64,000 nt of DNA from Cyanidioschyzon merolae (Eukaryota). Where the stretch lies: assembly GCA_000091205.1 (NCBI GenBank), contig AP006483.2; one strand, 5' to 3'. Both the position numbers and the translations under genes were made by a program. Under the pieces are notes generated by a model, which saw only the letters and a list, made by a program, of their open reading frames with translations, did not search any database and was not told where the DNA came from. Positions 17,111 through 49,957 of the stretch are shown piece by piece (positions within the stretch are counted from its first letter, which is position 1; the number at the start of each line of letters is the position of its first letter).

Positions 17111-18551
17111 GTCTCTTTTTGCTAAAGAATGCGGCTTCGTCTGTGCCAATGTGGAAATGAGGATTTGTATTTCGAGGGGGGCTAGCTCCGGTTTCTGACA
17201 TGTCCAGTGATTTTTCGAGATGAGCTCTTGATCAGGTCGTCAACGAAGAACCTCGAGTAGCGTTTGCATGTCCATCTGATGGCGCCAAGTAATGTGCCAA
17301 AGAGATGCCCGGAAACAGCAAGACTGAATAATTGAAAAATATCTGAATCGAGCATACAACATACACGTATGGAGAGCAGAAGAAAGGAGGCTTATACGCA
17401 TGGATTGCCAAAAATGATTTGATCTAGTTCACGGACCTCTGCTGAAGGGCATTGCGAATCATCTTGATTCCAGTGACATACCGAATGCAAGCGGCAGAGC
17501 GTCGAAAGAGCCACACCCAAACACGATCGTGCATCCGAAACCCACGTATGAATCGGTAATTCTTTATCGCTGCACTTTAGATATCAATGCTGTTGGTATG
17601 AAACAAGTTCGGGAGGAAAAGTCCAGATCTATGAACAGAGCGACTCGTCCCACGTTCCATTTGCATCCCACCCGGGTGGAGCGCTTCATCGTCGATTTCC
17701 CAGGGCGCGTCACAAACTCAGCCATTATAGAATTTTGTGCAAATTTATGAAGATAAAACCCTCACGCAAGTGTGGCGAGCGCGCGTCCAGCATGCCATAC
17801 CAGTAAGCGCATCCGTTTGCCTGCTCGCGCCGATACCTTCATACATGGGTTCAGTCGACTTACCCAGAAAGAGACCCGGTCGCCACGTTCCCGTCGGTAT
17901 GCGTCCAAGTTGTGCAGCCCGAACGCCAACCGCGACACGTCATTCGCATGCGTACTCAGACAAATATCGATGCCAAGCGCCCAGCTGCATATGCGCGTGA
18001 CCGGCTGGACGCAGCGCACCCCTAGGCTTCTTCTCGCGTACCCAAGGCCGGTCCGTAATCGAGATTCGCATGTTCGTGCCTATCCCCGTTCACATAACGT
18101 ACCGAAACGAAGAAACGCTTGATCCATGAACAAGGTGCCGGTCCGCGGAACGGTGACGGTCCGAGCGAACGCGCGGGTCGCGAACCGGTTTGCCTTGCAC
18201 TTAGTCCGGTACCAATTAATGGACATGAATTTCGCTTGCAAAAAATCCACCTCGATGCATGATAAAAGCCCTTAACTTCTCTTCTGAACGACGACACATG
18301 CCACGGCTGTGGCGCTCCATATCTGCGAATGCAGGCTCTGCGTGCGATCACTCCGCAACCACAGCACACCGCGTATAACAGTCTCAGTCGCTAACGGTGA
18401 ACAGTGCGAATAGCGACTGCGCCTGTCCAACGCTGCCGTGTACATCGCACCGCCCATAGAGGCGTTCGCGACCGATCGCCCCTTCATAGCGGAGACGTTT
18501 CGAATTGCTGCATGATCCGTTCGCATCAAGTCGTAGCATCCACGCTAGACT

Positions 18552-19760: not shown

Positions 19761-19849
19761 GTGCCACAGCGCAGTAGACGACTACGGACTCAGTGCTCCG
19801 ACTCCATAGATCGAGTAACACAAGCACTGGGCACCTTTCCGCGCCTCCG

Positions 19850-20870
19850 CGCTATCCAGGGACACGGCATCGATGCGTGCTGCGCATTGATGTCCAATAC
19901 ATACATGAATATACATATTCCTCCCATGTAGTTCGGAGGCTAGACGGCTGTCGCTATCCAGGGATACGGCATCGATGCGTGCTGCGCATTGATGTCCAAT
20001 ACATACATGAATATACATATTCCTCCCATGTATTTCGGAGGCTAGACGGCTGTCGCTATCCAGGGATACGGCATCGATGCGTGCTGCGCATTGATGTCCA
20101 ATACATACATGAATATACATATTCCTCCCATGTATTTCGGAGGCTAGACGGCTGTCGCTATCCAGGGATACGGCATCGATGGGTGCTGCGCATTGATGTC
20201 CAATACATACATGCATATACATATTCCTCCCATGTATTTCGGAGGCTAGACGGCTGTCGCTATCCAGGGACACGGCATCGATGCGTGCTGCGCATTGATG
20301 TCCAATACATACATGAATATACATATTCCTCCCATGTAGTTCGGAGGCTAGACGGCTGTCGCTATCCAGGGATACGGCATCGATGCGTGCTGCGCATTGA
20401 TGTCCAATACATACATGAATATACATATTCCTCCCATGTATTTCGGAGGCTAGACGGCTGTCGCAATCCAGGGATACGGCATCGATGCGTGCTGCGCATT
20501 GATGTCCAATACATACATGAATATACATATTCCTCCCATGTAGTTCGGAGGCTAGACGGCTGTCGCTATCCAGGGATACGGCATCGATGCGTGCTGCGCA
20601 TTGATGTCCAATACATACATGAATATACATATTCCTCCCATGTATTTCGGAGGCTAGACGGCTGTCGCTATCCAGGGATACGGCATCGATGGGTGCTGCG
20701 CATTGATGTCCAATACATACATGAATATACATATTCCTCCCATGTAGTTCGGAGGCTAGACGGCTGTCGCTATCCAGGGATACGGCATCGATGCGTGCTG
20801 CGCATTGATGTCCAATACATACATGAATATACATATTCCTCCCATGTATTTCGGAGGCTAAACGGCCTGT
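19850..20870. repeat. 102-bp minisatellite, about 10 tandem units with two alternating variants
   Basis: Unit cgctatccaggga[c/t]acggcatcgatg[c/g]gtgctgcgcattgatgtccaatacatacatgaatatacatattcctcccatgta[g/t]ttcggaggctagacggctgt. Period 102 counted from 19850, 19952, 20054 and onwards. It lies immediately 5' of the cysE-like start codon (19760). Confidence 0.9.
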
Positions 20871-22110
20871 GCTGGCAGCGCTACGCGGCGACTGTGTCGC
20901 ACAGCCGATGTACGGGCAGCAGGATTCCAGGGACGTGTCAGCAATTGGTTTGGCTGGGCGATGGACCTCAGCGCTTTCACAGAAAAGACCGGGTATAGCG
21001 TCAGCATCATCGTAAACGGCTGGCGATGACGGAGTTTGGCATGTGGTGCGCTCGTGCCGCCTGCGTTGCCCGTGCGGTTCATATTCGCGGGTAGTGCACG
21101 CGGTGGATGGAAGCGCTAGGTTGCTAGGTGCCCAGCCTCTGCAACAAGCTGCAACGTGTCCCAAGTACGGTCTCGTTTCGGGACAAGCGTCTGGGAGATA
21201 GCCAATGGAATCAATACGTGAGGCACCATGTCGCGCTTTGCTCTCGAAATGAACGAGCTCGGAGCGATAGCGGAGAGAGGGCCTAAGAACCCGATGCTGG
21301 CTTCGCGGCCGAAGTAGTAGAAAATGCGAAAGCGCATTGTCTTGGTCGGTTCACGCGATCTAGATTTGGTCTTTCGGCAAGTGCATGATGCCAAGATGCG
21401 GTACACTCGGACCGTGAGCATATGTCGACGAACCACAAGAATGAGCGGTGAATTTCGTGAGCGCTTCCCCATCGGCAATATCAAGCGCTAGCGAGTTGCT
21501 GGCTCTTGTGCATCTCTCAGTTTAAGCTGCATCCTGCGGACATGCATCCAATCGCTGTTGTTCAGAGAGGCGGCGCTCTGCCCGTAGACGCGGCATCTGT
21601 GCAGTGTGATACATCTGTGGCCACCTAGCAGACGCATGGACGACAGCGTCGCGTCGTCTACCCGGTGCTTGCGGGTCCAGGGCGCTGCGGCGAAGGCATC
21701 GTAGGTGTCCAAAAAGCCGCTGCCGGGGCAAGGCGGAGATCACCCTGACTACCGCCAGGATCCGACTTGACGGCACCCGCAGGACTTTCGCTGCTTTCGA
21801 TTCCCGGTTTCAGACTACGTGAGCGATGCTAGCCGAAACCGTATCCTGTGACGAAAAAGATGATCGCGCTCAGATCTGTTTTACACATCAGATCTATGTA
21901 TCCTTAAGAAGGGCGCTTTGCTCCGCATTCATTCGTGGGATGACATTGCGTTACAGATTCGACAATGAACCGCACGGCCTAACCTACATGGATCTTAACG
22001 TCCTAAAAATATCACCGAGACGTATGAGGAAGACCCAGGAGACCCGTTGCAACCAGGGACCAACGAAAACTTGGGGATACCCTCGGCCGTTGCAGTGAAG
22101 TGCACAAACG

Positions 22111-24429: not shown

Positions 24430-25080
24430 ATCAAGTGGTGTTGTTCGCGACGTTTAAGCCCGGATTTCGTTGTGCCTGGTAGTTGCCGACGCATCTGATG
24501 CAAACATGATATTCGTGATATGCGCGTCGCTTGCCACTTTTATCTACGTTGTACCCAGTCTCTGTGTACCTTAGGCAGCGGTGACAATCGTTCCGTAGAT
24601 AGCTGTTTTCCTGTGTCCACAGCATCTTCTCAGTCACCGAGGACCGTCCTGTAGCGCATGAACACTTGTTTCATCGCTCGGAACGTGCCCTTGACGATTA
24701 CAGAAGCATCCTCTCCGTGCCATTCTCTGTTTCCGTTCTCGGTGGCATGCCCTACGATCACGGTCTTCTTCTGGGCGTTCTCACTGGTGAGTACGTTGAT
24801 CAACGCCCGCTCGAGCACGAGATGTTCCAATCGACCTCGAATTACTTGAGCGCGACTTTATCCACACTGAAACACTGCCAGAATTCGAGTTCTGGCCGCA
24901 GTACAAGTCAGGAACTTTTGATCCGTTTACGCTAGCTTTGTGAAAAGCGGAATCGAACTCGACACTGGAAGCGATTAATGCGATGCATCATGCTGGAGAC
25001 TTATACCCTTTTCGATGCAAACAGAAGAGACGGGTAGTCTCTAGCAGCATATCCACCGAAGAGTATCATGCGGGGGTCGA
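24430..25080. repeat. Diverged paralogous segment B (pairs with 16550-17110)
   Basis: See segment A. Confidence 0.6.
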
Positions 25081-26136
25081 ATATAGCTTTGTCGATTCCA
25101 ATAAAAAAGAAGAGATTTGTCTCCCGAATGAAAACTATCGTTGGATGCGACAAGTTCAGCCAATAGCGGTCACGAGCTAGTGAATAAACCGTGGAGGGAT
25201 GATGTCGAGTAGTTTGCTCGTAAATCCAGCAGTACCATTCTCTTCAAGTTTGTTTTCGCTTGGGGCATGACGATCGAAAACCTGATGCATACGTGATTCG
25301 ACAATATTGTACGAAAGAAAAGGAGAAGCGTGGACGCTTGCATGTATGAACTGGAAAATCTTATCTGGTATTTTATGAGGTCCCGCTCGAGTGCCTGTTG
25401 AATCAGCATGATGGCGGTGGCATGACCTCCATTCCCGTGGCAGATACCCTCATTAGTATCAGTCGGAAAACACAACCGAAAATCGTTAAACAACCTACGA
25501 CGCAGTTATTTCGTACCACTGCACTCCCAGCATCAACACCGTTCATCTAAAAATGTTCCGAAGAATACAAAAAAAAACAAGAACAGAATATATCATTCAG
25601 AGTTCCTGACATGGGTGTGGATACGCCGCTGCCGCCACACTCGTTGTTCACAGGTAGGGCGGCTTCATGGTGCTTGCGCAAGTAGCTTATAGGGACGTGA
25701 ACTTTTTGACACAAGCAGCGGTTGCGTTTGCGCAACCAGGCACTTAAGCCACGTGGTTTGCTTGCCCCAGAGGCGCCCGTTGGCCTGGTGTTTTATGAAC
25801 AAGGCACCAGTCGCTGGCAGGGGAAACGAGCTTTATCACGTGGTACGCGTGTGCTGTTTGGATGTGTTTCCACGTTTGTGTCGCACGACTACACAACCGA
25901 AGCCTTTGACTTTACCAGTTTGCGTAGTACCTTCTGGGTATACCGCTCCGCGCAGCGAGAGCACGCTTTCGGGAGCTTCACGCCTTGAACGGCACCCGTA
26001 TGGCAAGACGAACACTACACGTCAGAAAACCCGCGAGCTAGAAGCAAGTGCACCGTGCCGTGTTCGTTGTAGGTTGAGGTGAACGCACAGAAGCGAGCCC
26101 GGTGATTGCTCCAGAGCCCCGCTTCAAGCAATTATC

Positions 26137-31935: not shown

Positions 31936-33372
31936 ATGGGAAACGCTACAGCTCTATTCTACCTGGTATTTCTGGCCTGGATCCTGCTGCTTCATTTGCC
32001 GCTGTGGCTGCGCTTGTCACCACGTGAGGCGTCAGTATCAAGGGGGAACCTGACTGCGGAAGCGATCGAAACCCTCCAGTCGTACCTGCGCATCGACACT
32101 GCCCAGCCACAACCTCAGTACCGTAAGGCAGTTCGCTTCATCAAGCAGGCCTGCAAACGAGCTGGTCTTGAAGGTTTCCACCAGTTCTCGTTTCAGCGTG
32201 GTCGACTCGGGGCGGTCTGTAGTGTCCAGGGACGCGAGCCGCACCTTGGAGCGGTGGTGCTGAACTCGCACATTGACGTCGTGCCGGCCGAGTCGTCCGC
32301 CTGGCGCCTGGCGCCTCCTTTCTCAGCAGCTATTGTCGACGGAAACGTGGTCGCTAGGGGCTCACAAGATATGAAGACGCAAGGAGTGCAGTACCTGGAG
32401 GCGCTGCGTCGGCTACGCGCACAGGCCGGCGACAAGTGGCCTATGCGGCGAACGGTCCACGTGCTCTTTGTGCCGGATGAGGAGGTCGGTGGTCGCACGG
32501 GGATGGCTTCGCTGGTGAACTCCAGTCTATGGCGTGATACATTGCGCCCGGCAGTGCTGATCGACGAGTGTCTTCCCGAGACTCGCCTCGGTGTCTACAA
32601 AGTATGCTATGGCGAGAGACAGCCCTGGTGGATGACCATTCGAACGAGCCATCACACTGCGCATGGCGGAACGCTCCCCGCAGATACGGCGATTCAACGT
32701 CTTTTTGCGCTGTTAGACAACGTACTTGCGTATCGAGAGCAACAGCGCCTTGCTGTAGAGAGCCAGAGGAAAGCGCTGGGCGAGGTGCTTGGCGTCAATG
32801 TGGTCCACTGGGCCAGCAGCGGCAACGGGAACGCCACCAATGTCATCCCGAGTGATGCAGAAATCCGACTGGATATGCGCGTCCCGCCACATATGTCTGA
32901 ACTGGAGGTACTTGCGCTGTTAGAGGAGTGGACACGAGGCTCGTGCAACTGGCACTCGCACAACGGCGAACTTTTGTGTGCGAATGCTACGTACCGTATC
33001 CAGTTCATTGATCGAGTCATTGCACCGTATCGCGAAGTGGTTGACGAGGCCGAGTCTATGCTCTATCGGGCGATTGCCATCGCAGGAAGAGCACGAAACA
33101 TCAGTCTCGAACCGTTTGTGTTCCCCATGAGTACGGACTCGCGGTATGTGCGTCAGGCGGGTGTCCCAGCGTATGGTATCATGGCGCTGGACGGGGTCCT
33201 GCAGGGAGCGCAGTTACATCAGCCTGATGAGTCTGTGCCACTGACTGCGTTCGAGCGAGGTATTTCGTTTTACATGGAATTGGTGCGTCAACTCGCCGAG
33301 GAAGCGCACTGGGAAGCAACCGCAGACGTTGCGAACGTAACTGCCCGTCGGCATACTTCGGATGAACTGTAG
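31936..33372 (+). CDS. M20-family metallopeptidase, aminoacylase-1 type, with N-terminal signal/anchor
   Basis: 478 aa. VLNSHIDVVPA, ARGSQDMK, HVLFVPDEEVGG parallel the ACY1 consensus LLNSHTDVVP / ARGAQDMK / PDEEVGG. The hydrophobic N-terminus is MGNATALFYLVFLAWILLLHLPLWL. Confidence 0.8.
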   Translation: MGNATALFYLVFLAWILLLHLPLWLRLSPREASVSRGNLTAEAIETLQSYLRIDTAQPQPQYRKAVRFIKQACKRAGLEGFHQFSFQRGRLGAVCSVQGREPHLGAVVLNSHIDVVPAESSAWRLAPPFSAAIVDGNVVARGSQDMKTQGVQYLEALRRLRAQAGDKWPMRRTVHVLFVPDEEVGGRTGMASLVNSSLWRDTLRPAVLIDECLPETRLGVYKVCYGERQPWWMTIRTSHHTAHGGTLPADTAIQRLFALLDNVLAYREQQRLAVESQRKALGEVLGVNVVHWASSGNGNATNVIPSDAEIRLDMRVPPHMSELEVLALLEEWTRGSCNWHSHNGELLCANATYRIQFIDRVIAPYREVVDEAESMLYRAIAIAGRARNISLEPFVFPMSTDSRYVRQAGVPAYGIMALDGVLQGAQLHQPDESVPLTAFERGISFYMELVRQLAEEAHWEATADVANVTARRHTSDEL

Positions 33373-33446
33373 CAGTGGTGCGGCATCGACGTCGTCGGTC
33401 GCATTATGGTGCGGATGTCCCGAATATGATCTTGAGTACCGCATTC

Positions 33447-34497
33447 GCGGTAGTAGCGAATCGCGGAATATCAGTATCGTTCCTGCAACCATTGCCCAGC
33501 AAATCCTTCCCAGTGTACCAGTACGGCGCTGTCGCCTTGGTGCAATGCTGAACACCACCGTACCCGTGCCAGGCTCCAGGCGGGAATCCAATGCCGTCTA
33601 TCCCGGGGTACGGATTCATTGGCATCGAAAGCCTTGCACATCCCAGCACAATGCCAATAACGTGTACCAAACAATCACCTTAGACGCCCGCTCGAGACAC
33701 AGCCGCTGGACGCCCCGAATGCCCCAGACTCTTCTTCCGAATGGTGATCGAGGTGTCCAGGTCTCGGTTCAGAGCGAAAACACTGGCCGGCACGGCGGCT
33801 ACTGGCATCACACCCTAGCAAGCATCTCACCAGGTCGAGTCCGTCGGTACATGACACTCGATCAGCTTACCGTACACCACAGAGTGTACCGGGCTCCGTT
33901 CTATCCGCATCTTGTCAGCCTGATTCAACGAGAACTCATGCTCGTAATGCAGGTATGTCGCCCTGGAGGCATCCACGGGTGTCTAACAAGAATCAGTCGC
34001 TGCACTTATCGTCCGGTCTCGTCCACGAGACGCGAATGGAGGCCACGCGCACTGCAACCCGTGCACCGTCACAGGCTACGACTCACAGAGGCGTCTTGCT
34101 AGTCACTTGGCTTCGTGCCGCTCACGGAATAAGTTCGTGAATGCACGCTCCTCGCTGCCGTACACGAGACGCAGTCTAGGACTCCAGCACTCTATCATGT
34201 ACGCCTGTCCAGGGATCGTCCGCAGGAGCCTGCGGGACGCTGAGGCACGCGCTGAAGCGCGGAATCCCTCGCATCAGTCTTCGTGTTTTTCGGTGGCATT
34301 CCGGTGAGCGGACAGCGCCTACATCAGGCGCGCTCCACACGGACTCGGTTACTCTTCTGGGTTTCGACTCTCGTTAGAAACGCTTTGGAGCTTGCCTCGA
34401 GTGTGCTGCAATCATTAGCATCGCTACTCGACGCGCCACTGTATTCGGGATCAGCTGGGCAACGTCGTTCGACGTGTTGCCAGCGTACTGCATCTCC
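33447..34497. repeat. Direct repeat copy 1 (about 1.05 kb, about 99% identical to 39274-40327)
   Basis: Starts right after the aminoacylase stop codon. Identity begins at ...cgcgg[t/g]a[g/a]tagcgaatcgcggaatatcag and ends at ...gttgccagcgtactgcatc. Embedded ORF translations differ at about 7 of 210 codons. Confidence 0.85.
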
Positions 34498-36499
34498 TGT
34501 CGTGAACGTTGGCTGCAGGGTCGCAACAGATCTCGATCAAAGTATTCCAGATACATGTGAGCAGCTGGTAGCTCTGGTCCTTCAATTCCGAAAAGCAATT
34601 GCGTGATAGAGGGCGGCATGCCAAGAGAAGCTGGGCAAGCCATCCTCGAATGACAATTTCCACGATTCCCAATGACGTGCGGAATCTCACGTTTTGGAGT
34701 ATCATCCCGGTTCATGTATCGAAGCATGGAGTTCTTGACAACGATTTGAGACTGGTGCTTGCGCACCCGCATGTCGCCGTTAGCGTCATTCCCCGTTGTT
34801 TTTTCGAGATCAGCCTTGTCTCCGTTGTGCGATGGTTTTCTGCTCTTTTCTCGTCTCCGCCTGCTCCTCACTTACTTGGCCAGGCAGCGTGGATGTGGTC
34901 GCTGGACTCTACACCCGACCTGGTTCCTCGCGATTCAGGTAGGCTCGATGGACAGCTGGGCTGATGCGTGCCCTCTGTATATACGTATGAATCTACTATT
35001 CATCAAATACCTTTTTGTCACCGTCTCCGTCGCGAGCAAGCCCAAAGACAGATGCGCATCATGCCGCTTCCCCGCAAGCCCGAGCAGCGGAGCGAGCAAG
35101 CGAGCGAGCGGTCCAAGACTGATCAAGGCAGAGGTCGGCTTGTCGGAGAACGGCTTCCCCATGGGTTTCGTTCCCACGAATGCGAACGACTGGTCCATTG
35201 ATCAGTGAACGTCAAAATGGCGTCACATAACAGCGGAGATGCTATCGACTTGATTGAAACAGGGATAACACGCTGGCTCGAAAAGCAGCTCATCACGAAT
35301 CTCAGCGATGTACTCCACGAGCGCGTTTGTGTGATGAACAGCGACACTGTCTTACAGCGGGACTCAGACGTATAGCGAGCAGCCGCCCCAGAATGTGCAT
35401 CGATGAGCGATGTGGTGTTGAGCGACTCTATCTGTCCAGGGATGTATAGACGAAGACGCGATTGACTCGCTGCTCGGGGATGCTGATGTCGATGCGCTCA
35501 CCTGCCCCTTCTCCACGAACCGTTGTGTGCTCAGTTTTGAGTACACGGATACAGGTCTCATCTCTCTCTGAAATGGACGTCCATCGAGTGAGACGAACAC
35601 CGGCCGTCGACTGGAAAACGCATGCGCGTTTCACTACGAACTCACTCACGTGATGCTCAACAAACGACAGTCTCTCAGGGAAGCACGTCCTTCTCTTTCC
35701 GCAAACGTGTCCCTCTATCACACGTTTGAACGAACGATACGGAAACGTTCATACGCTGGCTCCTTTGGAATTATTTCATGGATAACGGATGGAGTGAAAT
35801 TGATTTACGACAGGACAGTCACGCGTATACAGTTTGGTGCGTTCTGTTTGCGATGCCCGACATTCAACCCAGGGAGTTCGAGACGGGCGCTTCATCCACC
35901 ACCTGCTGACCGTAGAATGACTAACTTGCATCCGCAAGACAATTTTTAGCATCAGCAGCAGTGACAGCATAGAGTTTTTTCTGGCCTTTCCCCAATTCAC
36001 AGGATCCATTAGTTGCGTAGCATACCGTCGAGGAAAAAACAATAACGTCATATAGGGTGTACCGGTATCCACGGACCAGCATTCACTGCTCTGAACATAA
36101 CGCTTTGGACGGGCAGCATTCGTCATGCTAGCGTCCGTCTCACCTTAGATTCCAGCGATAAGCTTTGGCGTTCGTTCCGCGGACTGGAGCCGCTTTCTTC
36201 ACCATGACACCTTTCGGTAAACGCGAACTATTCGACGGGGCCAGTTACTCCGTTCCGCTGCGATATCAGAAAAAAGCAACACGCTCTACAGCGCGCAGGA
36301 TAGTACCTGGCGTCGACAAATCAAGACCTCGAAGCACGCGCACTCGCCACGAAGAGCCAGCAACCTTGATTTATATGGACTGAACAGTACAACGGCACAG
36401 CAAAGCGTGAACGTACCTCGAGCTGTACCCGATGAAGACTACTGCCTAACCGTACGAACCTCTGTAGTTTTTCCGTCGCCGCGCTGCGCTCTAACGAAA

Positions 36500-37060
36500 G
36501 CACCTGTGGACGCGTTTACACTCATTCAGCGTATGAGGTTCCAGAAGCACCGAACACAAACCCCAAATAAGCACCCCTGGCTAGCTCCGCATACTTCTGC
36601 GCTATTCCCGTGCGTACACTGCGCTTTGGGAAGCACCGGTGGACGCGTTTACACTCATCCAGCGTATGGGGTTCCAGAAGCACCGCACTCAAAACCAAAA
36701 ATAAGCACCCCTGGCTAGCTCCGCATCCTTCTGCGCTATTCCCGTGCGTACACTGCGTTTAGAGAAGCACCGGTGGACGCGTTTACACTCATCCAGCGTA
36801 TGGGGTTCCAGAAGCACCGAACACAAAACCAAAAATAAGCACCCCTGCCTAGCTCCGCATACTTCTGCGCTATTCTCGTATGTATACTGCGCTTTGGGAA
36901 GCACCGGTGGACGCGTTTACACTCATCCAGCGTATGGGGTTCCAGAAGCACCGAACACAAAACCAAAAATAAGCAACCCTGGCTAGCTCCGCATCCTTCT
37001 GCGCTATTCCCGTGCGTACACTGCGTTTAGAGAAGCACCGGTGGACGCGTTTACACTCAT
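36500..37060. repeat. 134-bp tandem repeat, about 4.2 units
   Basis: The core gcaccggtggacgcgtttacactcatccagcgtatggggttccagaagcaccgaacacaaaaccaaaaataagcacccctggctagctccgcat[a/c]cttctgcgctattcccgtgcgtacactgcg recurs at about 36508, 36641, 36775, 36909, 37043. It gives repeat-derived shadow ORFs on both strands. Confidence 0.9.
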
Positions 37061-37207
37061 GATCGTGCCCGACCCCAGCGACGACGACGGCAGCGGGTAC
37101 GCGCTGGGGGCGCACAGCGAGTCGACAGCGCCGCACCGCAGCACTCTGTAGCAGACGCGCTACCGTCTCGAGCAGCGTAACGTCGTCGCACGAGTGCCCC
37201 AACCGGT

Positions 37208-38230
37208 GTGCAGTGTTTTGTGGACGACAACCCGTCTTATACCCTTCGCCGTAACTGGGCTCATGAACTCATGTTTATTGGTCCTATAGGTGCACTAGGT
37301 TCAAACCGGGGCTCGCCTAGAGCAGCAAGCACCCGTCCTAAGCCGTCTGCAGCTGCAGGAAGCCGCTGTCGTTACTGCCGGCACCTGAGGACGGCGAGTG
37401 CCAACCAGCGCTTTTGGCAACAAGAGTACTCGGGGACCGGTCCGGGGGTGACAAGACGCTCGTCTGCTGCGCTACGACGCAGGTGTCGTGGAACACGCTG
37501 GACGCTTGCAGCACCGACGCCTGCACGACGGCCTGGTGAGCGGTTTGGACGTCTCCACTTTCTGGGGCGACAAGCGTTGCTGGGGACGTGTCGGCCTCTA
37601 ATAGAGGCACCTGCTCATAACTGTCGACGAATTGCTGCTGCAGTGCAGATTAGTGCACCGATTGCTGTTCTATGGAAGGTACTGACAGACTATAATCACT
37701 TGGCGGAGTTTATTCCGAACCTTGCTGTGTCCCGTACGTGCCCGCATCCGAGCGGCGGAATTCGGCTGCAGCAGGAAGGTATCCAGAACGTTTTTGGGTT
37801 CCGTTTTCGCGCCGCAGTGCTCATGGACATGAGTGAGGTGGTAGGCAACCCAGACGAGGTGCCGCAGCGACGGAGTATCTATTTTGACATGGTTCAAAGT
37901 CGGGACTTTAGTCGCTTCGAGGGTGAATGGTATCTCGAGGAAATAAGAGAAACCGCAGACGATGCTGGGAGCGTATCACCAGCAGAGGAGGATCGTGCAG
38001 CTGCCGAGGGCGGTGACGCTACACATCCTGTACCCAGTACGATCCTAGGCTACGTGGTTGAGATCGTACCCCGTCATATGGTTCCCGTGCGATTGGTAGA
38101 ATGGCGCATTCGGGAGGATCTCGTACCGAATCTACTCGCTGTGAAGCGCGAAGCTGAAAGAAGATATCTTGAAGCGTACCGATCGGAAGCGATGCTGCAA
38201 GCGCAGCGAGAATCACCACCTTCGGGCTGA
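37208..38230 (+). CDS. SRPBCC superfamily 'polyketide cyclase/dehydrase'-like protein (plant/algal plastid type) with Arg/Ser-rich N-terminus
   Basis: 340 aa. The central region ISAPIAVLWKVLTDYNHLAEFIPNLAVSRTCPHPSGGIRLQQEG...FRAAVLMDM...RDFSRFEGEWYLEEI has the Bet v1-like/Polyketide_cyc pattern (VW.VLTDYE.L..FIP.L..S). The N-terminal 120 aa is low complexity and the start is uncertain. Confidence 0.5.
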   Translation: MQCFVDDNPSYTLRRNWAHELMFIGPIGALGSNRGSPRAASTRPKPSAAAGSRCRYCRHLRTASANQRFWQQEYSGTGPGVTRRSSAALRRRCRGTRWTLAAPTPARRPGERFGRLHFLGRQALLGTCRPLIEAPAHNCRRIAAAVQISAPIAVLWKVLTDYNHLAEFIPNLAVSRTCPHPSGGIRLQQEGIQNVFGFRFRAAVLMDMSEVVGNPDEVPQRRSIYFDMVQSRDFSRFEGEWYLEEIRETADDAGSVSPAEEDRAAAEGGDATHPVPSTILGYVVEIVPRHMVPVRLVEWRIREDLVPNLLAVKREAERRYLEAYRSEAMLQAQRESPPSG

Positions 38231-39273
38231 ACGACTGCGGTTTTTGTCGGGCGTGGGTGCATACTGAGCTAGTGCGCAGGACAGCGTGCCGGCATGACGC
38301 TGCTTCCAAACTCGACGCTTGTCTCGTATAGTCGAAGATGCTGATCCGAACACTGGGCGTCCTATGGCTCCAATACGGGAACCAGATCGATTCGAATGCA
38401 CACGAAGGTGCTGCTGTGTGCACCAGAAGTTTCCCTCCTGCCAGCATGGGAAACGAGGATATGCTATTTAGCCTGATCATCGCGCAGAAGACATGCAGGG
38501 AGCATCACGCTCGACCGCAGATACCCAACTCCTACAGACAGACCGAACCAGGAAACAGTATGTGATTGCTGCTTCTTGGCACATGCAAGCGACGATGAGC
38601 ACGATAGCGCGACACGGGTCTTGGATTCTTTGGCACAGTGTGTGTCTCGCCAAGCTGTGTATCAGGCATTGGCAAAGCAGCAGTCACGCCAAAACCTGTG
38701 TCCCGAGTCACACTCTTGCGGCAGGTCGTGCTCGCGTAAACGGTTTCAGCTCTAACACGTTTCCGAAGTTGGAATCGTGGCAGATACGCATACTTGCAAA
38801 AACTTTCATCCATTGCGTCGCGCCTTGGTAAAGTAACGTAGCGTTGCTTTCGGTCCGAAAAAGCGCCGAGACGATGCCGTCGTCAAGACTCATACATCAT
38901 TCCAGAATATGATGCAGCGAGCGTGACTTGCCTCATTGCGCTGTGGATGGGTCATCAGTTAGCGCTGATCCACGTTCGGATGGAACCTAGAGAGGGCGCG
39001 TCGCGAGCGCAGCGCAGCCTGGGCGCCAGAGCCGCTGTCCAACACAAGGAGCGTGCAGCCTCGCTTGTATTGTCTCCTGAGAGATCTGCGATATGCGCAG
39101 CTCGCACGGCTCAACGATACAAGGCGCAAATATTAAGAGGAAAGAGCGAGCAGGTACAAAGCCCGTATCCGACAGCTACGGATTGTAGAGCGAAAAGATG
39201 GGATTCAAAAGGAAATTAAAAAAGAGAGATGTGTCGTTATAGAAAATATTCCGCAACCACGCCTCCATGCCTA

Positions 39274-40327
39274 TACGCGGGAATAGCGAATCGCGGAATA
39301 TCAGTATCGTTCCTGCAACCATTGCCCAGCAAATCCTTCCCAGTGTACCAGTACGGCGCTGTCGCCTTGGTGCAATGCTGAACACCACCGTACCCGTGCC
39401 AGGCTCCAGGCGGAAATCCAATGCCGTCTATCCCGGGGTACGGATTCATTGGCATCGAAAGCCTTGCGCATCCCAGCACAATGCCAATAACGTGTACCAA
39501 ACAATCACTTTAGACGCCCGCTCGAGACACAGCCGCTGGACGCCCCGAATGCCCCAGACTCTTCTTCCGAATGGTGATCGAGGTGTCCAGGTCTCGGTTC
39601 AGAGCGAAAACACTGGCCGGCACGGCGGCTACTGGCATCACACCCTAGCAAGCATCTCACCAGGTCGAGTCCGTCGGTACATGACACTCGATCAGCTTAC
39701 CGTACACCACAGAGTGTACCGGGCTCCGTTCTATCCGCATCTTGTCAGCCTGATTCAACGAGCACTCATGCTCGTAATGCAGGTATGTCGCCCTGGAGGC
39801 ATCCACGGGGGTCTAACAAGAATCAGTCGCTGCACTTATCGTCCGTTCTCGTCCACGGGACGCGAATGGAGGCCACGCGCACTGCAACCCGTGCACCGTC
39901 ACAGGCTACCACTCACAGAGGCGTCTTGCTAGTCATTTGGCTTCGTGCCGCTCACGGAATAAGTTCGTGAATGCACGCTCCTCGCTGCCGTACACGAGAC
40001 GCAGTCTAGGACTCCAGCACTCTATCATGTACGCCTGTCCAGGGATCGTCCGCAGGAGCCTGCGGGACGCTGACGCACGCGCTGAAGCGCGGAATCCCTC
40101 GCATCAGTCTTCGTGTTTTTCGGTGGCATTCCGGTGAGCGGACAGCGCCTACATCAGGCGCGCTCCACACGGACTCGGTTACTCTTCTGGGTTTCGACTC
40201 TCGTTAGAAACGCTTTGGAGCTTGCCTCGAGTGTGCTGCAATCATTAGCATCGCAACTCGACGCGCCACTGTATTCGGGATCAGCTGGGCAACGTCGTTC
40301 GACGTGTTGCCAGCGTACTGCATCGCT
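39274..40327. repeat. Direct repeat copy 2 (about 1.05 kb)
   Basis: See copy 1. There is a purine-rich stretch (aaaaggaaattaaaaaagagagatg) about 50 bp upstream. Confidence 0.85.
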
Positions 40328-41550
40328 GTTGGAGGCGTTATTCGGTCAGCATTGACCGAAGCACTCGAGTATCGTTTCAATTCAGTCCACGCCTGTGTCG
40401 GGATAGAAAGGAGCGCTTCCTCGAACATGAGCAGGCGCTCTGAATATTGCGTCGTTTTCTAATGTCATCAATACCTGGCTCTGAGTTTTTTGACTGCGAC
40501 TGCATCCTTTTCATCAACCGCGGTTGCCAGCAAGCGAGCGATACTACTGGCACTGTTATAGACGCGATTCGCTGCTTCCGGTTTTTCCCAACACATGCCA
40601 TGCACAGACAGATGATTCGATACGTGTGCTGCCTTTTATATCTATTTTGTTGTGCGTTTACACCCTCAGTGCCGCCTTCGCAGCGGTGACACATGACTAT
40701 GGGAATGCGTCCCTTGTGTCCGTCATACTATCTCCTTCGAGAACTGAACTGCGGCGCGTGAAGGCATGCTGTATTGTTCAGCACATGCTCGTGACGGCTA
40801 TCGAAATCGCTCCTGAGCGCTGTCCACGGTTTGCGCACCCTGTGCCGTACGCCATGATCACGACTTGCTCTGAGCGATGCGTCGTCAACGAGTCTGCTCA
40901 CTGCATCAACAAGCGCACTGCATCGCATTGGATAGAGCGTTTAGGGTATGCGACGTGCTCCACGATGAAATACGTACCGAAAGGAACAACCAGGCCGGAG
41001 CGACTCGAGAATTTTCGATCCATAGGCATGAGACTGGGAACCTCTCATCCACGGACGACGTCAACTAGAATGCCTCGTCGATTCAAAAAGTTCGATTTCC
41101 TGTGCCAACGAATTGCCTCGAAGCACAACATCGAAAATCTGAAAAATGCTGCATTCCAATATGCTGCACGCGAGAAGAGGTGAACACGCACGGGAGGCTT
41201 GTATGGATGCGCTTCTTCACAGTATCGGATTTTTTTCCAACGCTTGTTCCAGGGGGGTGCGAATCCTCTTGACGCTGGTGACGACACGAATTCCAGTGCA
41301 AGAACATCGAAACAGCCACTCCCAAGAGACAACCGAGCATCCCAAAACGATCGTTGAGTCCATAGGCCGGTAGTGCTGCACGTCGAATGTCGAGACTGTC
41401 CATCTAAAACACAACTGTAAACTTATGAACAAGATAGCACAGACCGCGTCATTCAGTGTCGCACTCGAATCCGACGTGTACGCAGTGGAGCAACGGACGC
41501 CATGCTACCGGTCGAGTCGATATCGAGACTCCGCACGTCCACGATGCACA

Positions 41551-44298
41551 TCATTCCAGAGGTGTTGCTCGTGGATCTCCAGTTTCATCAAGCTCCTCGG
41601 CACTGGTCCCAGGAACCCAGCGCGGAAACACTCGCTTGTACAAGCTCATGCAAACCGTATCACTGTGCAGGATCATTCCATCAAACGAGGCTTTCAGCGC
41701 TCCATGCGTACCGAGCGATTCCTCGATGCGTCCCAGACGACCGTGTTTTGTCCACAACGGTACGTGCCGGTAGTATTTCACATCTTCGGGATTAAAGAAC
41801 ATGTAGCGCACTGTTGCACGATTCTTGTGGGCGCGGTACGGTACCCCTGTGAGCACGATCCGTTTCAGCACAATCCGTTCGGGATTCGCACCCAGCACAG
41901 AGCCCCGAGCAACCAAGGCCGGCAGAACTGGAGTAGTGGCGGCAGTGCCTGCTGGACCAGTGCCGTGTGATGGGCGCGTCACCAGCACTGGTGCTGGCGG
42001 GAACGTCACCGGTGCGTAGAGCGAGGCTACGCTCCAGCGACCGGGCAATAGATAGCGTTCATAGCGATGCTTGTCGCATTTGGAATCAGCCTCGGAGAAT
42101 ATAGGACGAGCGAGAAGTCGGCGAAAGCCAATGTGGAAGCAAAGCAGCTGTCCAGCATGCACGAGTCCATTGTCTGGACAGGCCAACGCCGGGCTTTCGT
42201 TGTCTTCGGTGCTGGTCAAGTTGGTCATGACGTGATAGCGCTGTACCAGGCACTGCAGCACCGTGGGACGTTCTTCGTACGAAAGCAGGCACGACGCAAC
42301 CAGAGGGCCAGGCCAGCTCTCTAAGCGGCGCGCCTTCGGCTCGGCAATAGCATCCAGTACGAACGCGACAAAGCAGTGTGATTGCACGACTCCGTGGCAG
42401 GTTGCGTCCCGCGCTCGCTGGAACGCCTCGCGCGTCGCTCGTTGGAAGTGCTCGAACTGCACAATGCGTGCATACGCTGGCGGTAGACCAACGCTCGGAT
42501 CCCAGGGTGTTTTCCGAAACGAAGGCAACGGTCGATAGTTTGCGTACCGTTCCCGAACAGGGCAATCGGTGGGTGTATCGACCTCATCCGGAAAGAGGAG
42601 CTCGTCGCGTTCGACCTGCTGGGTATCGATCGCATCGAGCGAAGGTGTCTCCTCTGAAGACGTTTCCGCCTTTTCGGATGCAAGAGGCTCACGAGTCGCG
42701 CGTTGCCTGGAATGCGGAGCACTCGACGCATCGCTTGCAGTCCCTATGTCTGAAGCGTCATCGGATACCGAGTCGTCGTCGTCGTCGTCGTCATCGCTCG
42801 CAAGAGATGCGCTCCTGCTACCTGAGCCCATGCACGAATCCTCTGCTGCTTCCATTGGGGGTTTATCGTGCACCACAGCGACATTCTTTGTTGACGGTTC
42901 CAGAGGTACACCAGCCGCCGGTACACGGCCGTTCTGAGAAGGCATCTGGGAACGCTCGCTGGTTTCGAGCCATGCCGACTCGCACCTAAACGTTCCGGTT
43001 ATCGTTTCTACACGATTTTGGATATGAATGGCGCATCTTACCCGTGGGGGTTCGGTCTGCGACACGCTCCCTTGCCGGCACTGCATACCGGATAGAACGG
43101 CCGCCTCCATGGGGGATGACGATCCAAATGCCAGGCGCTCTGGAGCGTCATCTCCAAACGCAGGGAGTCCAGCAGCATCGGTTCCATCGGGAATGCGGAC
43201 TACAGGGTCCAAGCCTCCATTCCCAGCTGTTGGAAACGCAAATTTCGCACCATCAGATATGTCCATGGACGCGGGGTGATCAGTATACCCCCTGGGTGCC
43301 ATGTGTCGCGCATATGGCGCCTCGGCCCGCTCTAGACCCGCTACCACAAACGTGCCTACCCCAGTGATATGCAGTTGTTGGTGGACGCTGGCAGCGGCAC
43401 CCCGCAGCCATCCATAGAGCCGCACTCGACGACACGGTGCAGTCGGTGCCCGCTCACTGACGACACGTTCCACCAGGAGATACGAACGACTCGCTCGCCA
43501 GCGAATGGCTCGACGTTTGCCATATTCGAGCTGTCGTCGCGAATGCTCGACCTCGTCTGGATGACTTAGTACTCGAATGCGCACAGGTTCCTCTTTGGCA
43601 TCCAGAATCGACAGAGCGGCGAGACGTTGGTGACACTCGGCTAACCAGGTGGAGCTATCGGCAGCATGGGCAGAGCTCGCGTGCGCTCGGCCCCTGAATG
43701 GATGCTCGGAAACACCGGGGTGCTCTGCATCACATCGGTCAGCGTCCATCAGAGACTCGAGGGTGTTGGTGGCTCGTGGAAGCGCCACAGCGACGAAACT
43801 CAGGAGGCCTTGCGCTTGGATCGCCGCCAACCAGGAGTCGGCGACATCGTGCAGTCCCTCACCCTCGCCGTACACCAAGAGACCCAGATCAGCAACCTTG
43901 GCGGCGTCAAGCACCGCTTCAAGAGGAGCTTCAGCATCAAGGCATATCCACTGATGTACTAGACTGACTTGACGGGCGCGTCTGCGGGCCACTGTGTACC
44001 GCAGTCGATACCAGGGCGCAGTAGCGGGTTCGCCGCACTCCGTTGCCGTTGCCAGTGCCGTTGACTCCAACTGTTCGCCGGTCCGGCCACAGATTTCGGT
44101 ATATCCCCATTGCTTAAAGCAGTACGTCAGTGCCGGTGCGAGGCGTTGTGAAGAAGTGAGGCCCAAGACCACGATCAAAGTGGGGCTCGCGCCACTCGCC
44201 TCAGGACTTGTTGATACAGGTCGCTTGTTCGCACGCCGCTGTTTCCGTGCCAGGACCCTTTGGTGGACAACTGATCGCTGTCTTTTCCTCCCGGCCAT
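41551..44298 (-). CDS. TSR1: Ribosome biogenesis protein Tsr1 (Bms1/Tsr1 family, no P-loop)
   Basis: 915 aa. The C-terminal block VRYMFFNPEDVKYYRHVPLWTKHGRLGRIEESLGTHGALKASFDGMILHSDTVCMSLYKRVFPRWV matches the Bms1/Tsr1 C-terminal domain. The N-terminal GTPase-like fold lacks GKS/T (TLIVVLGLTSSQRL), which is typical of Tsr1. There is a basic N-terminus and an acidic DDDDDDDDS stretch. Confidence 0.7.
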   Translation of the reverse strand: MAGRKRQRSVVHQRVLARKQRRANKRPVSTSPEASGASPTLIVVLGLTSSQRLAPALTYCFKQWGYTEICGRTGEQLESTALATATECGEPATAPWYRLRYTVARRRARQVSLVHQWICLDAEAPLEAVLDAAKVADLGLLVYGEGEGLHDVADSWLAAIQAQGLLSFVAVALPRATNTLESLMDADRCDAEHPGVSEHPFRGRAHASSAHAADSSTWLAECHQRLAALSILDAKEEPVRIRVLSHPDEVEHSRRQLEYGKRRAIRWRASRSYLLVERVVSERAPTAPCRRVRLYGWLRGAAASVHQQLHITGVGTFVVAGLERAEAPYARHMAPRGYTDHPASMDISDGAKFAFPTAGNGGLDPVVRIPDGTDAAGLPAFGDDAPERLAFGSSSPMEAAVLSGMQCRQGSVSQTEPPRVRCAIHIQNRVETITGTFRCESAWLETSERSQMPSQNGRVPAAGVPLEPSTKNVAVVHDKPPMEAAEDSCMGSGSRSASLASDDDDDDDDSVSDDASDIGTASDASSAPHSRQRATREPLASEKAETSSEETPSLDAIDTQQVERDELLFPDEVDTPTDCPVRERYANYRPLPSFRKTPWDPSVGLPPAYARIVQFEHFQRATREAFQRARDATCHGVVQSHCFVAFVLDAIAEPKARRLESWPGPLVASCLLSYEERPTVLQCLVQRYHVMTNLTSTEDNESPALACPDNGLVHAGQLLCFHIGFRRLLARPIFSEADSKCDKHRYERYLLPGRWSVASLYAPVTFPPAPVLVTRPSHGTGPAGTAATTPVLPALVARGSVLGANPERIVLKRIVLTGVPYRAHKNRATVRYMFFNPEDVKYYRHVPLWTKHGRLGRIEESLGTHGALKASFDGMILHSDTVCMSLYKRVFPRWVPGTSAEELDETGDPRATPLE

Positions 44299-44497: not shown

Positions 44498-44610
44498 GAC
44501 GGACAGACAGACAGATAGATAGAGAGGCAGAGAGGCAGACAGACAGACAGACAGAGAGGCAGAGAGGCAGACAGACAGACAGAGAGATAGATAGAGAGGC
44601 AGAGAGAGGT
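44498..44610. repeat. (CAGA)n/(GAGAGGCA)n compound microsatellite
   Basis: gacagacagacagatagatagagaggcagagaggcagacagacagacagacagagaggcagagaggcagacagacagacagagagatagatagagaggcagagagagg. Confidence 0.9.
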
Positions 44611-45952: not shown

Positions 45953-48900
45953 CGGTTTCGACGGCTGGAAACGCACCTCTCATGCATTCATGGAGATGCT
46001 GCTGGTGACACGTGTATCGCCTCTCGAACGTGGGTGCTTCAGGCACTCATTTGAACTCTAGAACATCGACACGAAGAGTGATCCTGGTAGCAGAAGTCGT
46101 ATTCATGCACGCAGGAATGAGCGAACGGGTCTCACGGGTGGATCAGCGTGTTCGACGCACCAGCGCGTCCTCGCGGCTGCAAGTGACGTCCCCAAAATGA
46201 ATTGGATCATGAGCAACCTCGTATTCATGGACGCTGGAACACGAGGAATGCGTCGACGAGTGCATCAGTGTGGATGGCGTACCGCTGACTTGGCCCCGCT
46301 GGAAACTCCTCTAGAGCTGCCGCTTGAGGCAATCAGGTATCCGCGCGGAACGTCTTGAACGCGCAGTGCATACCACTTTGAGTTTCAACACCGAGTGTGC
46401 GGGTAGGCTCATGATCGCTTGTAGCATTTTGCTTAGAAAATATTCGGACTTGACCAAGTATTGTTTTTTCTTGCGTCATATTCGAGACTCCTGGCCCAGA
46501 GTTTTGAGGTAAGTGGTGTCGCAAACGCGTGCACGACGCGGGGTATGTGCGACGTGCCTGGCCTCGGCGGCCCTGTTTGGCAATCAGACCCGCTCGCGAC
46601 TACGCCCTTTGCATACCGTCGTCTGGAGTTCTGAAATATGACCTAGAAGCTCCGCATCTCGTTGAGATAATCGTAAAACGGAAAATGATCGCGAGGTGCC
46701 CATGTCGCTCTGCACGCCAGTGTGCATGCTTTATACCCGTATGCGAAACTAACGCAGCAGGGTCCGCGTACTCGGGCGTACAACGTAGATCTTTGGTCTG
46801 TGGGTTCTGTCGTCAGTGCCAGCCTTTGCGGGATTTCTGGACTGCAGTTCCTCTTCCTATCTGTTATCTTCGGCCGGAGGTAAGCCGGTTTCTGCTTTCC
46901 CTGCCAGCTCGATTGTCAGCAGTTGAGGGATGTCGATGGCAGCGTTCACGTCCCGATGTCACCGCTTTCTGCCCTGAGCGACGTATCCCATACGTAGGCA
47001 AAAGGTGCGAGCGATGATTTGCTTGATGAGTTTCGATACGTATAGTCCATGTTCGCGCTTCGCAGCGGAGACCCATTATTGTATGTACGTACTCCATTGT
47101 GTACACGAGCGCGACTCTGCAAAGAGCCGCCTTATGGCCTCGTAACGCTTGATCCATTGATTGGTACAAGTGATCAATGGGTACTGAGTGCTCCGCTTGG
47201 TGCCTTGCTCCGTTTCCGTGCACAGTACCGTGCTCAAAAATCATGGGTTTCATTCGGACAATCCCCTGGGCGAGTGCGCTGTCCGCTGTATACCAAAGCG
47301 CACACTATTCAATTCGATAACTCGTTACCAGCTTCCGAGCACGCTCGTCGTATGCTGTGTACGCTCCCCGCGAAACGTGTCCACGCGCATCAAGGGCATC
47401 AAGGCATGCCTCCAATTCGTGGGCAAAATGTGCACATGGCAGAGCGACTTGCGAGAATGCGTCCCAGACTTGTGAGACTCTTTTCGGTTTCGTTCGCACG
47501 CTCGTCGTTCTGTTCTTTTTATGTGCCTCCATCCGGTGAAACCAAGATGAGAGACGCGCGAGTACCACATAACGACAGTGGGTGCATTTTGGTGAATTTG
47601 GCAATCATGGCTATGAAGCGTCGCCGGTGTCAACAAGTCGTGTTCTTGTTGTTGGTGGCTTTTTTGTGTTTCAGGCTCCGCTTTGGGTCTAACGGAGGCG
47701 CAGGTGTAGAGATTCGCGCTACTGCGGCCTGCACCGATGCTCACCGCACTGCAGACCAACTTCTCGAGGCAAACGCATCTGCTTGGACATGGGAACTCCA
47801 CGTATTTCCTTATCTGAGCTTGGGGAGCGTTTCCGCTCCGAGACGGATCGTAAAGTGTCCGCGACACTCGCGTTGACGACCATGCATACTGGTATACACA
47901 GCACCGGTCTCGATAGCGGGCAGCAGGCCTCGTTGCCGACGTGCGAGCATCTCGCTGGTCCACATTTCCTCGCCTTTCGCATCTTTCTCTGTGCTCCGCC
48001 GATCTCGTTTCACCAATGGTTCACGAATTGCTTCGAATTTTTGTACAAAAAATTTACAGTCCACTTTATGAACGTGATAGCGCTGCTCAGCTCCTATTTG
48101 CTCGCCTCGAGTCTCTTGGTCTCCATCAAACGATGTTGTACCGACTATGCACAAGCGATTCCCTCTACAACGAAACGAAAAATGCACGAATCGAGGTGCT
48201 GGTGCAAGCGACCTGGAGACGCATTCGGAGCTGCATAAAAAGTCTATACTCATCAGGGGCGCTCTGAAAAAGCATACCAGACCCAGAAGCACAACGTCCT
48301 GCCTAGGTGGACTACACGCCAGCGGCAGCTGCATGTTCTCCTGAGTATCTTCGAGTCTGGGGAGTCTTCGATGACGTTTTCTCGTGTTCTCCATATGCGC
48401 CGAGTCGATGCTCTTCGGGATAGCGCCGGTTCTGAAGAGGTTCCTCATGCCGTCCCAGTCTAGTGACAGAATCGTCGCTCGTTTGCCAGCGCTGCATCGT
48501 ATCCATCACTGGCCGATGGCAGTGAGCACCCAGGTTATTCAGGACCGCAGTGCGTACTTTTCGGTCTTCGTGCTTGTCTGGAGAAAGCAGACCCCAGAGA
48601 ATTCGATGTGTCTCCTCGCTGTTCTTGCGTCGTGATGAAGGACTCTTCACAGTCATCGATCACTGCTGCCCAATGCCATATCGTCGATGGCAACAAATAG
48701 AGGAGCATGTGCCTCTCGAACGGAGTCGATTCTTTGACGTGACACGTTCATTGAGCTTTCGGTATGATCCTATGGACGAATCTTCACGAGATGACGTCAT
48801 GTTTGCTCTCCGTGTCAGTCCCGAAGCGCGAAGAACTGCACCCATTCGTTGCCATGGAACAGAGAGATCGAAACCTTGAGGAATGCGTGATATGAGTGTG

Positions 48901-49957
48901 CTGAACGTAGGAAAAAAAGAGAAGCGCAGAGGGTTGTACGTATGCCTTGAAAAATAATACAATTCGTTATCTTACGAACACTTGTTTGACGGCGTACTGA
49001 ATCACTTTGACAAAGGTGAGGTCACGAACTTCAGCGGTAAAGCATCGAGAGCGCCTCCCCGGAAACACAACCGAGAATCCAGAAACTGCATGTGCGTCCA
49101 TGAATCCTTTCTATTGCGGCACTTGGCATGTCGATACTGTACATCTAGCCAAACCTCCGAAAACCTGCAAATCACGCACAATTCGAGTGAATTTGTGTCC
49201 CACGTAAATCGAACACCGGTGCAGCCTCGAGCGCGACTCCCTACGAAGCCTCCAGGGCTAGGGGTCCGGAAATCTGCACGCGCGTCTCCCTGCTCCTGGT
49301 CGTTGAACGGGTACAGTGCCTATGGATCCAAATCATTTCAGCTGCTGGCATATAGGCACCATCCACACGACGAGAGAACGACCCTGGCGCCCGGCTTTGA
49401 CTAGTTGTGCGCCCTCGAGCGCATTTCGGGTACCAGGCATCGCGTGATCGATCGGCTATCGCCTTCTATGCACAAAAGGGTGTCGTTCGAGAAACCGTCC
49501 AGGGCCCCGAGCGGCTGGGAATTCCCCGGTACAAGCGGCGACGACCACGGCTTCAACGCAATCCAGTGGTTGCGTCTTAGGCTGCTTTGATCTTTTAGGG
49601 TCAATACATGCATCCCGAAATCTGTACTGAGACAGCAGATGGAGAAGGATCCATAGAAGCAGCAGCGCACTGCTTGGAAACGGACGAACAACTAATGAAC
49701 ATACATACTGTGTGTGTGCGCGTTCGCGTGTGCATGTACACCTGCCACAAACGCAGGCACCCCACACGAGCGACAAATGCGGTGTTGCGCAGTGCACTCC
49801 AAGTCTGCACTGAGCGCGACATCATAGGCGACCAGGATACGAACACACCCGGATGAAACTGCGAAAAGCAGCATACAGACAGGTCGGACGTACCGTGCTC
49901 GCGTTGAAACACGAGCCTAGTGCGAGAGCTGTGCACCGCATCACCAGGCACTGGAGA

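Follow-up and report, generated by a model that had tools for sequence, protein, structure and literature searches.

Two near-identical sequences of about 1 kb lie in direct orientation on either side of a conserved gene in chromosome 1 of the red alga Cyanidioschyzon merolae 10D; are they the ends of a mobile element, or has a piece of intergenic DNA simply been copied? The locus sits within a stretch of 64,000 nucleotides (assembly GCA_000091205.1, contig AP006483.2; the ‘window’ from here on), where the repeat copies, R1 and R2, enclose a minisatellite and a gene for an SRPBCC (COQ10-like START-domain) protein, an arrangement that the initial annotation likened to the long terminal repeats (LTRs) of a retroelement. 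We argue that the pair is most probably a small intrachromosomal segmental duplication, or low-copy repeat, of non-coding intergenic DNA, which derives from an older unit (termed E) and is maintained by gene conversion.

The repeat pair and its coding status

Self-BLAST of the window reports a single high-scoring segment pair for R1 and R2: 1,052 bp with 14 mismatches and no gaps (98.67% identity), at a direct spacing of 5,830 bp. The two direct copies of about 1.05 kb, described initially as lying 5.8 kb apart, are therefore real, with the coordinates first given being 1-4 bp off. When aligned in register, the homology stops abruptly at both of its ends. R1 had been said to begin right after the stop codon of a probable aminoacylase I (M20 peptidase) gene; it does adjoin that gene, but across a gap of 71 bp. 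R2 starts 1,042 bp past the SRPBCC gene, both copies being placed 3' of plus-strand genes and in equal orientation.

Each copy carries an open reading frame (ORF; 33362-34102, 246 amino acids, and 39267-39932, 221 amino acids), and the two translations differ at seven residues, in line with the original count of about seven codons. Codon usage, the pattern of substitution, annotation and a set of null database results all identify R as non-coding. Seven of the eight substitutions within the repeat ORF are non-synonymous, and its per-codon log-likelihood under codon usage is -0.02 to -0.03, as against +0.09 to +0.16 for 11 bona fide genes of the window (+0.10 for the SRPBCC gene); the window as a whole has 54% G+C and long ORFs without introns. 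A Pfam search in six frames of 33373-41550 (X-masked translations; E <= 1) returned Polyketide_cyc alone, in the SRPBCC gene, without any reverse transcriptase (RT), integrase (IN), protease, gag or transposase domain, which bears out the earlier description of an interior lacking a gag/pol-like ORF. Neither an Rfam family nor a tRNA gene was found anywhere in the window. The proteins of the aminoacylase, SRPBCC and Tsr1 genes have consecutive accessions (BAM78735, BAM78736 and BAM78737), and therefore no annotated protein, and no protein-coding annotation, falls between these genes.

A probable older unit and the direction of copying

With the R ORF as seed, a scan of metagenomes found three loci, all of which map to this region. 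A word-indexed protein search gave one cluster of 40 members, with products of 246 amino acids (R1 context), 221 amino acids (R2 context) and, once, 242 amino acids among the 15 listed; the contigs retrieved through it map here and nowhere else. An exhaustive HMMER search across 1.8 billion representatives produced one remote match (P0060; E = 2.6e-6). Looking for further copies of the unit, as had been proposed at the outset, has thus yielded nothing in the metagenome and protein searches beyond the R1 and R2 contexts, save for this one diverged paralog, and R/E appears to be low-copy, with two near-identical R copies and one old paralog known. R has no BLASTN match in plasmid and phage collections, and therefore shows no sign of foreign origin.

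It is the remote paralog that gives the duplication a direction. P0060 is encoded on contigs of 67-103 kb from the same samples (L025, L026 and L027), between genes for a TPT/DMT transporter and RF-1. Window positions 33522-36101 are colinear with L025 9922-12358 (nhmmer E ~1e-100; ~50-57% identity), and the alignment crosses the right edge of R1 into the start of the interior (‘Istart’) uninterrupted; the alignment of R2 to the paralog is limited to R, with 40325-41550 showing no homology. Since R1 and Istart are colinear with the paralog and the right flank of R2 is not, R1 would occupy the parental context and R2 would be a partial copy of the left end of E. Similarity between E and L025 under tblastx is weak in every frame, and unit E is therefore taken to be non-coding.

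The diverged copy of E itself (L025 9839-12378; also present in L026 and L027) fills nearly the whole of the 3.2-kb spacer between the 3' ends of the transporter and RF-1 genes. Within it, a 58-bp island (L025 11278-11335; window 34987-35044) is 81% identical, on a background of ~52%.

We propose the following sequence of events. An older unit E of ~2.7 kb (33443 to ~36120), situated just downstream of the aminoacylase gene, would have served as the source; its left 1,052 bp would then have been copied at the DNA level into the SRPBCC-Tsr1 intergenic region to generate R2, most likely by break repair or template switching. Later exchange through interlocus gene conversion would keep R1 and R2 ~98.7% identical, and such 1-kb direct repeats, in combination with efficient homologous recombination, would offer a substrate for unequal exchange or for loss of the 5.83-kb unit by ‘pop-out’; selection presumably acts against losing the SRPBCC gene. 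The segmental duplication that the initial annotation had listed among its candidates is thereby supported and refined, R2 probably reproducing only the R1 end of an older ~2.7-kb unit. A different route, in which the whole 5.83-kb unit was duplicated in tandem and then partly deleted, is ruled out by the sharp end at 34494/40324 and the lack of any trace of Istart past R2.

The enclosed gene and its minisatellite

The SRPBCC gene had been described as captured. In two contigs of a distant cyanidiophyte, L002 (JGI metagenome) and L003 (Logan), the M20 gene, 844 bp, the SRPBCC gene, 1,072 bp and Tsr1 follow one another in the order and orientation of the window, with a Tsr1 that is 67% identical to that of the window. 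Neither contig has a homolog of R by BLASTN or tblastx, homology being confined to the three genes; the corresponding intergenic regions of C. merolae measure 3.9 and 3.3 kb, with one copy of R in each. This conserved synteny indicates that the SRPBCC gene is ancestral at its position and that the label of captured gene was wrong; with the gene already present, it is therefore not explained by R, interior and R having been inserted as one element. Campbell-type integration of an SRPBCC-bearing circle is likewise ruled out by the synteny in L002 and L003.

The tandem array of the interior, given at first as five copies of a 134-bp unit, is present, though Tandem Repeats Finder (TRF) counts 4.2 copies, ending ~210 bp short of the SRPBCC start codon. 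The number of copies varies among wild haplotypes (~3 in L004, ~8 in L007 and ~6 in L011, against 4.2 in 10D).

Mobile-element explanations

The architecture invites comparison with a non-autonomous LTR retroelement (of the large retrotransposon derivative, LARD, or terminal-repeat retrotransposon in miniature, TRIM, kind), such that R1 and R2 would be the LTRs and the 4.8-kb interior, with a captured SRPBCC gene, would have been inserted along with them as a unit. Long direct repeats around an interior without pol do agree with this, as does the sole LTR-like detail, a minus-strand TGG (within TGGAGGCGTGGTTGCGG, 39251-39267) that comes at a distance of 5 nt from the R2 inner edge and looks like the beginning of a primer-binding site; on the plus strand the TGG nearest to the edge of R1 comes at 15 nt, and the window is without a tRNA gene. 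The remaining hallmarks, for which the initial annotation had proposed a check, are missing. R starts with ATTCGCGG / ATACGCGG and ends in ...CTGCATC (its reverse complement starts with GATGCAG and ends in ...CGCGAAT), so that the termini read AT..TC on the plus strand and GA..AT on the minus strand, rather than TG..CA. Within 15 bp to either side of both outer edges, a search for a target-site duplication (TSD) gave four shared 4-mers and one 5-mer, as against 3.5 and 0.9 by chance, and none at the homology boundaries. No polypurine tract (PPT) stands at the inner edges: the sequence upstream of R2 (AACCACGCCTCCATGCCT) is pyrimidine-rich and the minus-strand equivalent (ACGTTCACGACAGGA) has 10 purines in 15.

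Set beside these nulls, the lack of an RT, IN or gag relic and the apparent ancestry of the interior gene, the LARD-like candidate falls. It also sits badly with the old paralog, in which R1 runs on into Istart, so that the right edge of R1 is not the internal boundary of an LTR; with the synteny of the SRPBCC gene in a distant relative that is without R; and with the want of other copies in the metagenome and protein searches. Published scans of the genome point the same way: no LTR retrotransposon was found in the finished C. merolae sequence by Nozaki et al. (PMC1955436), no intact LTR retrotransposon by the PlantLTRdb pipeline (PMC10025401) and no TRIM in a dedicated survey (PMC4717578). 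We therefore consider an LTR origin highly improbable. A DNA transposon, a miniature inverted-repeat transposable element or a composite transposon was also considered, and the ends of R have no terminal inverted repeats and the locus no transposase domain.

A second mobile-element explanation takes E to be a non-autonomous element read from the minus strand, with R2 a 5'-truncated retro-copy of its 3' end made by non-LTR retrotransposon machinery, or else takes R1 and R2 to be independent insertions. There is at least one diverged copy of E at an unrelated locus; R2 retains one end of E without the remainder, as 5' truncation would predict; the homology of the L025 copy to R2 begins at about the left boundary of R; and 26 non-LTR RT elements have been counted in C. 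merolae (PMC1955436). These points speak for such a history. Against it, the left boundary is without a poly(A) or simple-repeat tail, no run of A or T occurs at either boundary, and neither R1 nor R2 singly is surrounded by a TSD. Two loci only were found, which do not amount to a family; R1 abuts a gene, which leaves the left end of E undefinable; and R2 lies just 5.8 kb from its source in the same orientation, for which local copying at the DNA level is the better fit. Retro-copying of E, or separate insertion, is in our view unlikely.

Concerted evolution in wild haplotypes

Both contexts of R recur outside the reference. The order aminoacylase, R, interior (fL>R>Is) is found in wild assemblies L005 and L007, and the order SRPBCC, R, Tsr1 (Ie>R>fR) in the independent wild assembly L015, the copies in all three being 98.3-98.8% identical to the window. 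An artefact of the reference assembly is ruled out, since both contexts recur in assemblies made independently.

At R positions 74, 79, 106 and several others, the 10D copies and those of the 10D-like wild contigs L018 and L019 share one allele and both copies elsewhere share the alternative; at positions 3 and 638 the alleles track copy, not strain. Between paralogs there are 9-14 differing sites, between orthologs 16-19. Alleles are thus common to both copies within a haplogroup, and therefore the copies would seem to evolve in concert, in which case their 98.7% identity is not a date. On these sequence comparisons, R1 and R2 appear to be partly homogenised by interlocus gene conversion, and the duplication appears to be older than the split between 10D and the wild haplotypes; the earlier statement that it is recent was wrong, with haplogroup alleles shared by both copies and a paralog distance below the ortholog distance. 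Between 10D and the wild contigs R diverges by 1.4-2.4%, and adjacent unique non-coding DNA by 0.6-1.5%; duplicated DNA subject to interlocus conversion has been reported to show such raised variation (PMC10172114).

Selection, rather than conversion alone, might instead have kept the two copies, if R had a function as a non-coding module (for instance as a terminator, a 3' untranslated region, an insulator or a long non-coding RNA). The shared placement of both copies 3' of plus-strand genes (at distances of 71 bp from M20 and 1,042 bp from SRPBCC) would suit such a role, as would their retention in every wild haplotype sampled. Saying this, R varies more among strains than the unique non-coding DNA adjacent to it, has no match in Rfam, lacks a homolog in the corresponding spacers of the relative, and is just 50-57% identical to the old paralog with no strongly conserved block inside it; we judge selection for a function of this type to be very unlikely as the reason for two copies.

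Several points nevertheless weigh against a gene-conversion-maintained segmental duplication as we have set it out. A regulatory or RNA function for R may exist. The term ‘low-copy’ applies to the metagenome and protein databases, in which coverage of the 10D genome is uneven. Metagenome assemblies may blend near-identical repeats into consensus mixtures and thereby inflate the apparent sharing of alleles; countering this, sites 74-106 lie within ~100 bp of unique left flanks. The paralog-bearing contig L025 comes from the same samples and is presumed to belong to a C. merolae-type genome; its transporter has a best cluster at 99% identity and a next match in Cyanidiococcus at 60%, with no separate 10D entry. 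Lastly, the junctions of R1 and R2 hold no microhomology that clearly points to a mechanism of duplication.

Possible recombination between the copies

Whether the pair acts as a recombination substrate that could loop out the SRPBCC gene, another of the candidates raised initially, bears on a set of junction contigs. The junction Ie>R>Is, in which the end of the interior is joined through R to its start, occurs in four metagenome contigs from four samples (L004, L009, L010 and L014), and L004 has an exact terminal overlap of 121 bp that gives a circle-like path of 5,694 bp. Such a junction is the expectation for a popped-out circle or a tandem array; collapsed repeats also create cycles in assembly graphs. 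L014 carries the segment 36315-36497 twice, in two haplotypes found apart from each other in other samples, and because L014 is a chimera of these two haplotypes we rate the junction contigs as probable assembly artefacts. The reciprocal deletion junction, aminoacylase to R to Tsr1, was found in none of the contigs examined.

In C. merolae 10D, removing a cassette through recombination of the direct repeats around it is an established technique (PMC13353863). This precedent, along with concerted evolution, makes a loop-out at the natural locus plausible. It is conceivable, if doubtful, that R1 and R2 constitute an active natural recombination cassette in wild Cyanidioschyzon, with the 5.7-5.8-kb unit present as extrachromosomal circles or tandem arrays; were this so, the four Ie>R>Is contigs, the 121-bp circular overlap and the absence of the reciprocal deletion junction would all be explained.

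Relation to known systems

Low-copy repeats are usually defined as sequences of at least 1 kb with at least 90% identity that are not high-copy transposable elements. R1 and R2, at 1,052 bp and 98.67%, come within the definition of segmental duplications or low-copy repeats (e.g. those of human; PMC10172114 and PMC3790853), being direct and flanking a single-copy gene, and resemble them in the strain-specific alleles common to paralogs and in a higher variation inside the duplicate than in its flanks. They differ in being tiny (1 kb), in a 16.5-Mb genome noted for little redundancy, and in that their candidate rearrangement products are probable assembly artefacts.

The likeness to LTR retrotransposons, LARDs and TRIMs is one of architecture, with long direct repeats around an interior of a few kb; the locus departs from them in lacking TG..CA termini, a TSD, a PPT, a gag/pol relic and a copy family, in an interior that holds an apparently ancestral host gene, and in the continuity of R1 with its flank in the older paralog. 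Excision cassettes engineered in 10D (two tUBQ copies around CAT-HSVtk; PMC13353863) likewise place direct repeats around a few kb in the same organism; the natural repeats, in contrast, flank a conserved gene whose loss is probably counter-selected, and no excision event has been observed at the locus. E also invites comparison with the interspersed repetitive element of C. merolae, which has 253 copies of ~3.2 kb and a truncated ORF weakly similar to WSV486 of white spot syndrome virus (WSSV; Nozaki et al. 2007, PMC1955436). Both are kb-scale, dispersed, non-coding and intergenic, whereas E appears low-copy, with its single remote ORF match in 1.8 billion representatives. A paper on highly diverged dispersed repeats (PMC11050394) contains nothing particular to the R1/R2 locus.

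The pair is, then, an ordinary low-copy repeat and a fresh instance of a familiar type, with a modest leftover possibility of natural circle formation or amplification. What is gained is, for the most part, the removal of a false lead: the locus leaves unchanged the repeated reports that C. merolae has no LTR retrotransposons. The positive value is small, consisting of a clean, datable low-copy repeat in concerted evolution within a genome famed for scant redundancy, at which repeat identity is a poor clock. As natural 1-kb direct repeats on either side of a conserved COQ10-like START gene, R1 and R2 could also serve to assay spontaneous intrachromosomal recombination, or change in copy number, in a model alga.

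Features of the locus and other repeats in the window

Table 1. Coordinates of the R1/R2 locus within the window, with the basis for each assignment.
Feature	Position	Strand	Basis
Left flanking gene, probable aminoacylase I (M20 peptidase), BAM78735.1	31936..33372	+	Pfam and exact protein match; stop codon 33370-33372
R1, upstream repeat copy, non-coding; probable left end of unit E	33443..34494	.	Self-BLAST, codon usage, contiguity with Istart in the L025 paralog
Unit E, putative older ~2.7-kb non-coding low-copy unit (R1 plus ~1.6 kb of interior)	33443..36120 (end approximate)	.	nhmmer against L025
Istart, interior-start, unique non-coding DNA; 34495 to ~36120 lies in E	34495..36497	.	No other similarity in window, no Pfam match, no annotated protein
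134-bp minisatellite, 4.2 copies	36498..37060	.	TRF
SRPBCC / COQ10-like START-domain gene, BAM78736.1/XP_005535022.1, 319 amino acids	37271..38230	+	Pfam Polyketide_cyc, exact match, synteny
Iend, interior-end, unique non-coding DNA from SRPBCC stop codon to R2	38231..39272	.	Pfam null, BLASTN within window
R2, downstream repeat copy; probable derived partial copy of the left 1,052 bp of E	39273..40324	.	Self-BLAST; L025 homology ends with R
fR, right flank, from R2 to Tsr1 (3' end); old, weak matches to further intergenic places in the window	40325..41550	.	Relaxed BLASTN
Tsr1 ribosome-biogenesis gene, BAM78737.1/XP_005535023.1, 915 amino acids, 100% identical to the 10D protein	41551..44298	-	Protein match

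Under relaxed BLASTN, R, Istart and Iend have no matches in the remainder of the window, and only the right flank has weak, old ones: 41101-41471 resembles 48849-49210, 17293-17605 and 25197-25603, and 40568-40876 resembles 24466-24777, in intergenic stretches of 300-400 bp at 56-62% identity. These similarities suggest a degraded family of short dispersed repeats in C. merolae intergenic DNA. The left flank of R1 and the 3' end of R share an 11-bp resemblance (9/11 matches) of marginal significance, on which we do not build.

A further dispersed direct repeat, unrelated to R or E, has copies of 2.1 kb at 11698-13784 and 52115-54215 that are 78.6% identical with many indels, and a purine-rich plus strand (GC skew up to +0.22, AT skew up to +0.21); ORFs within its second copy contain no Pfam domain. 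This pair may belong to the 253-copy, ~3.2-kb element (PMC1955436), for which it is a better candidate than E. In the ORF at 13513-14238, the C-terminal half carries an MPC (mitochondrial pyruvate carrier) domain and the 5' part overlaps with the end of the 2.1-kb repeat; the true start codon is therefore probably downstream.

Two tandem repeats complete the picture. A 102-bp unit is repeated ~10 times at 19850-20873 with 97-98% identity. Long ORFs read through the array on either strand (plus, 19793-20998; minus, 19782-21164), and their Pfam matches are scattered and spurious-looking; the array adjoins a minus-strand gene for serine acetyltransferase (18552-19760). The other, a short array of ~32-40-bp units (44498-44607; 87-95% identical), lies directly upstream of the Tsr1 start codon.

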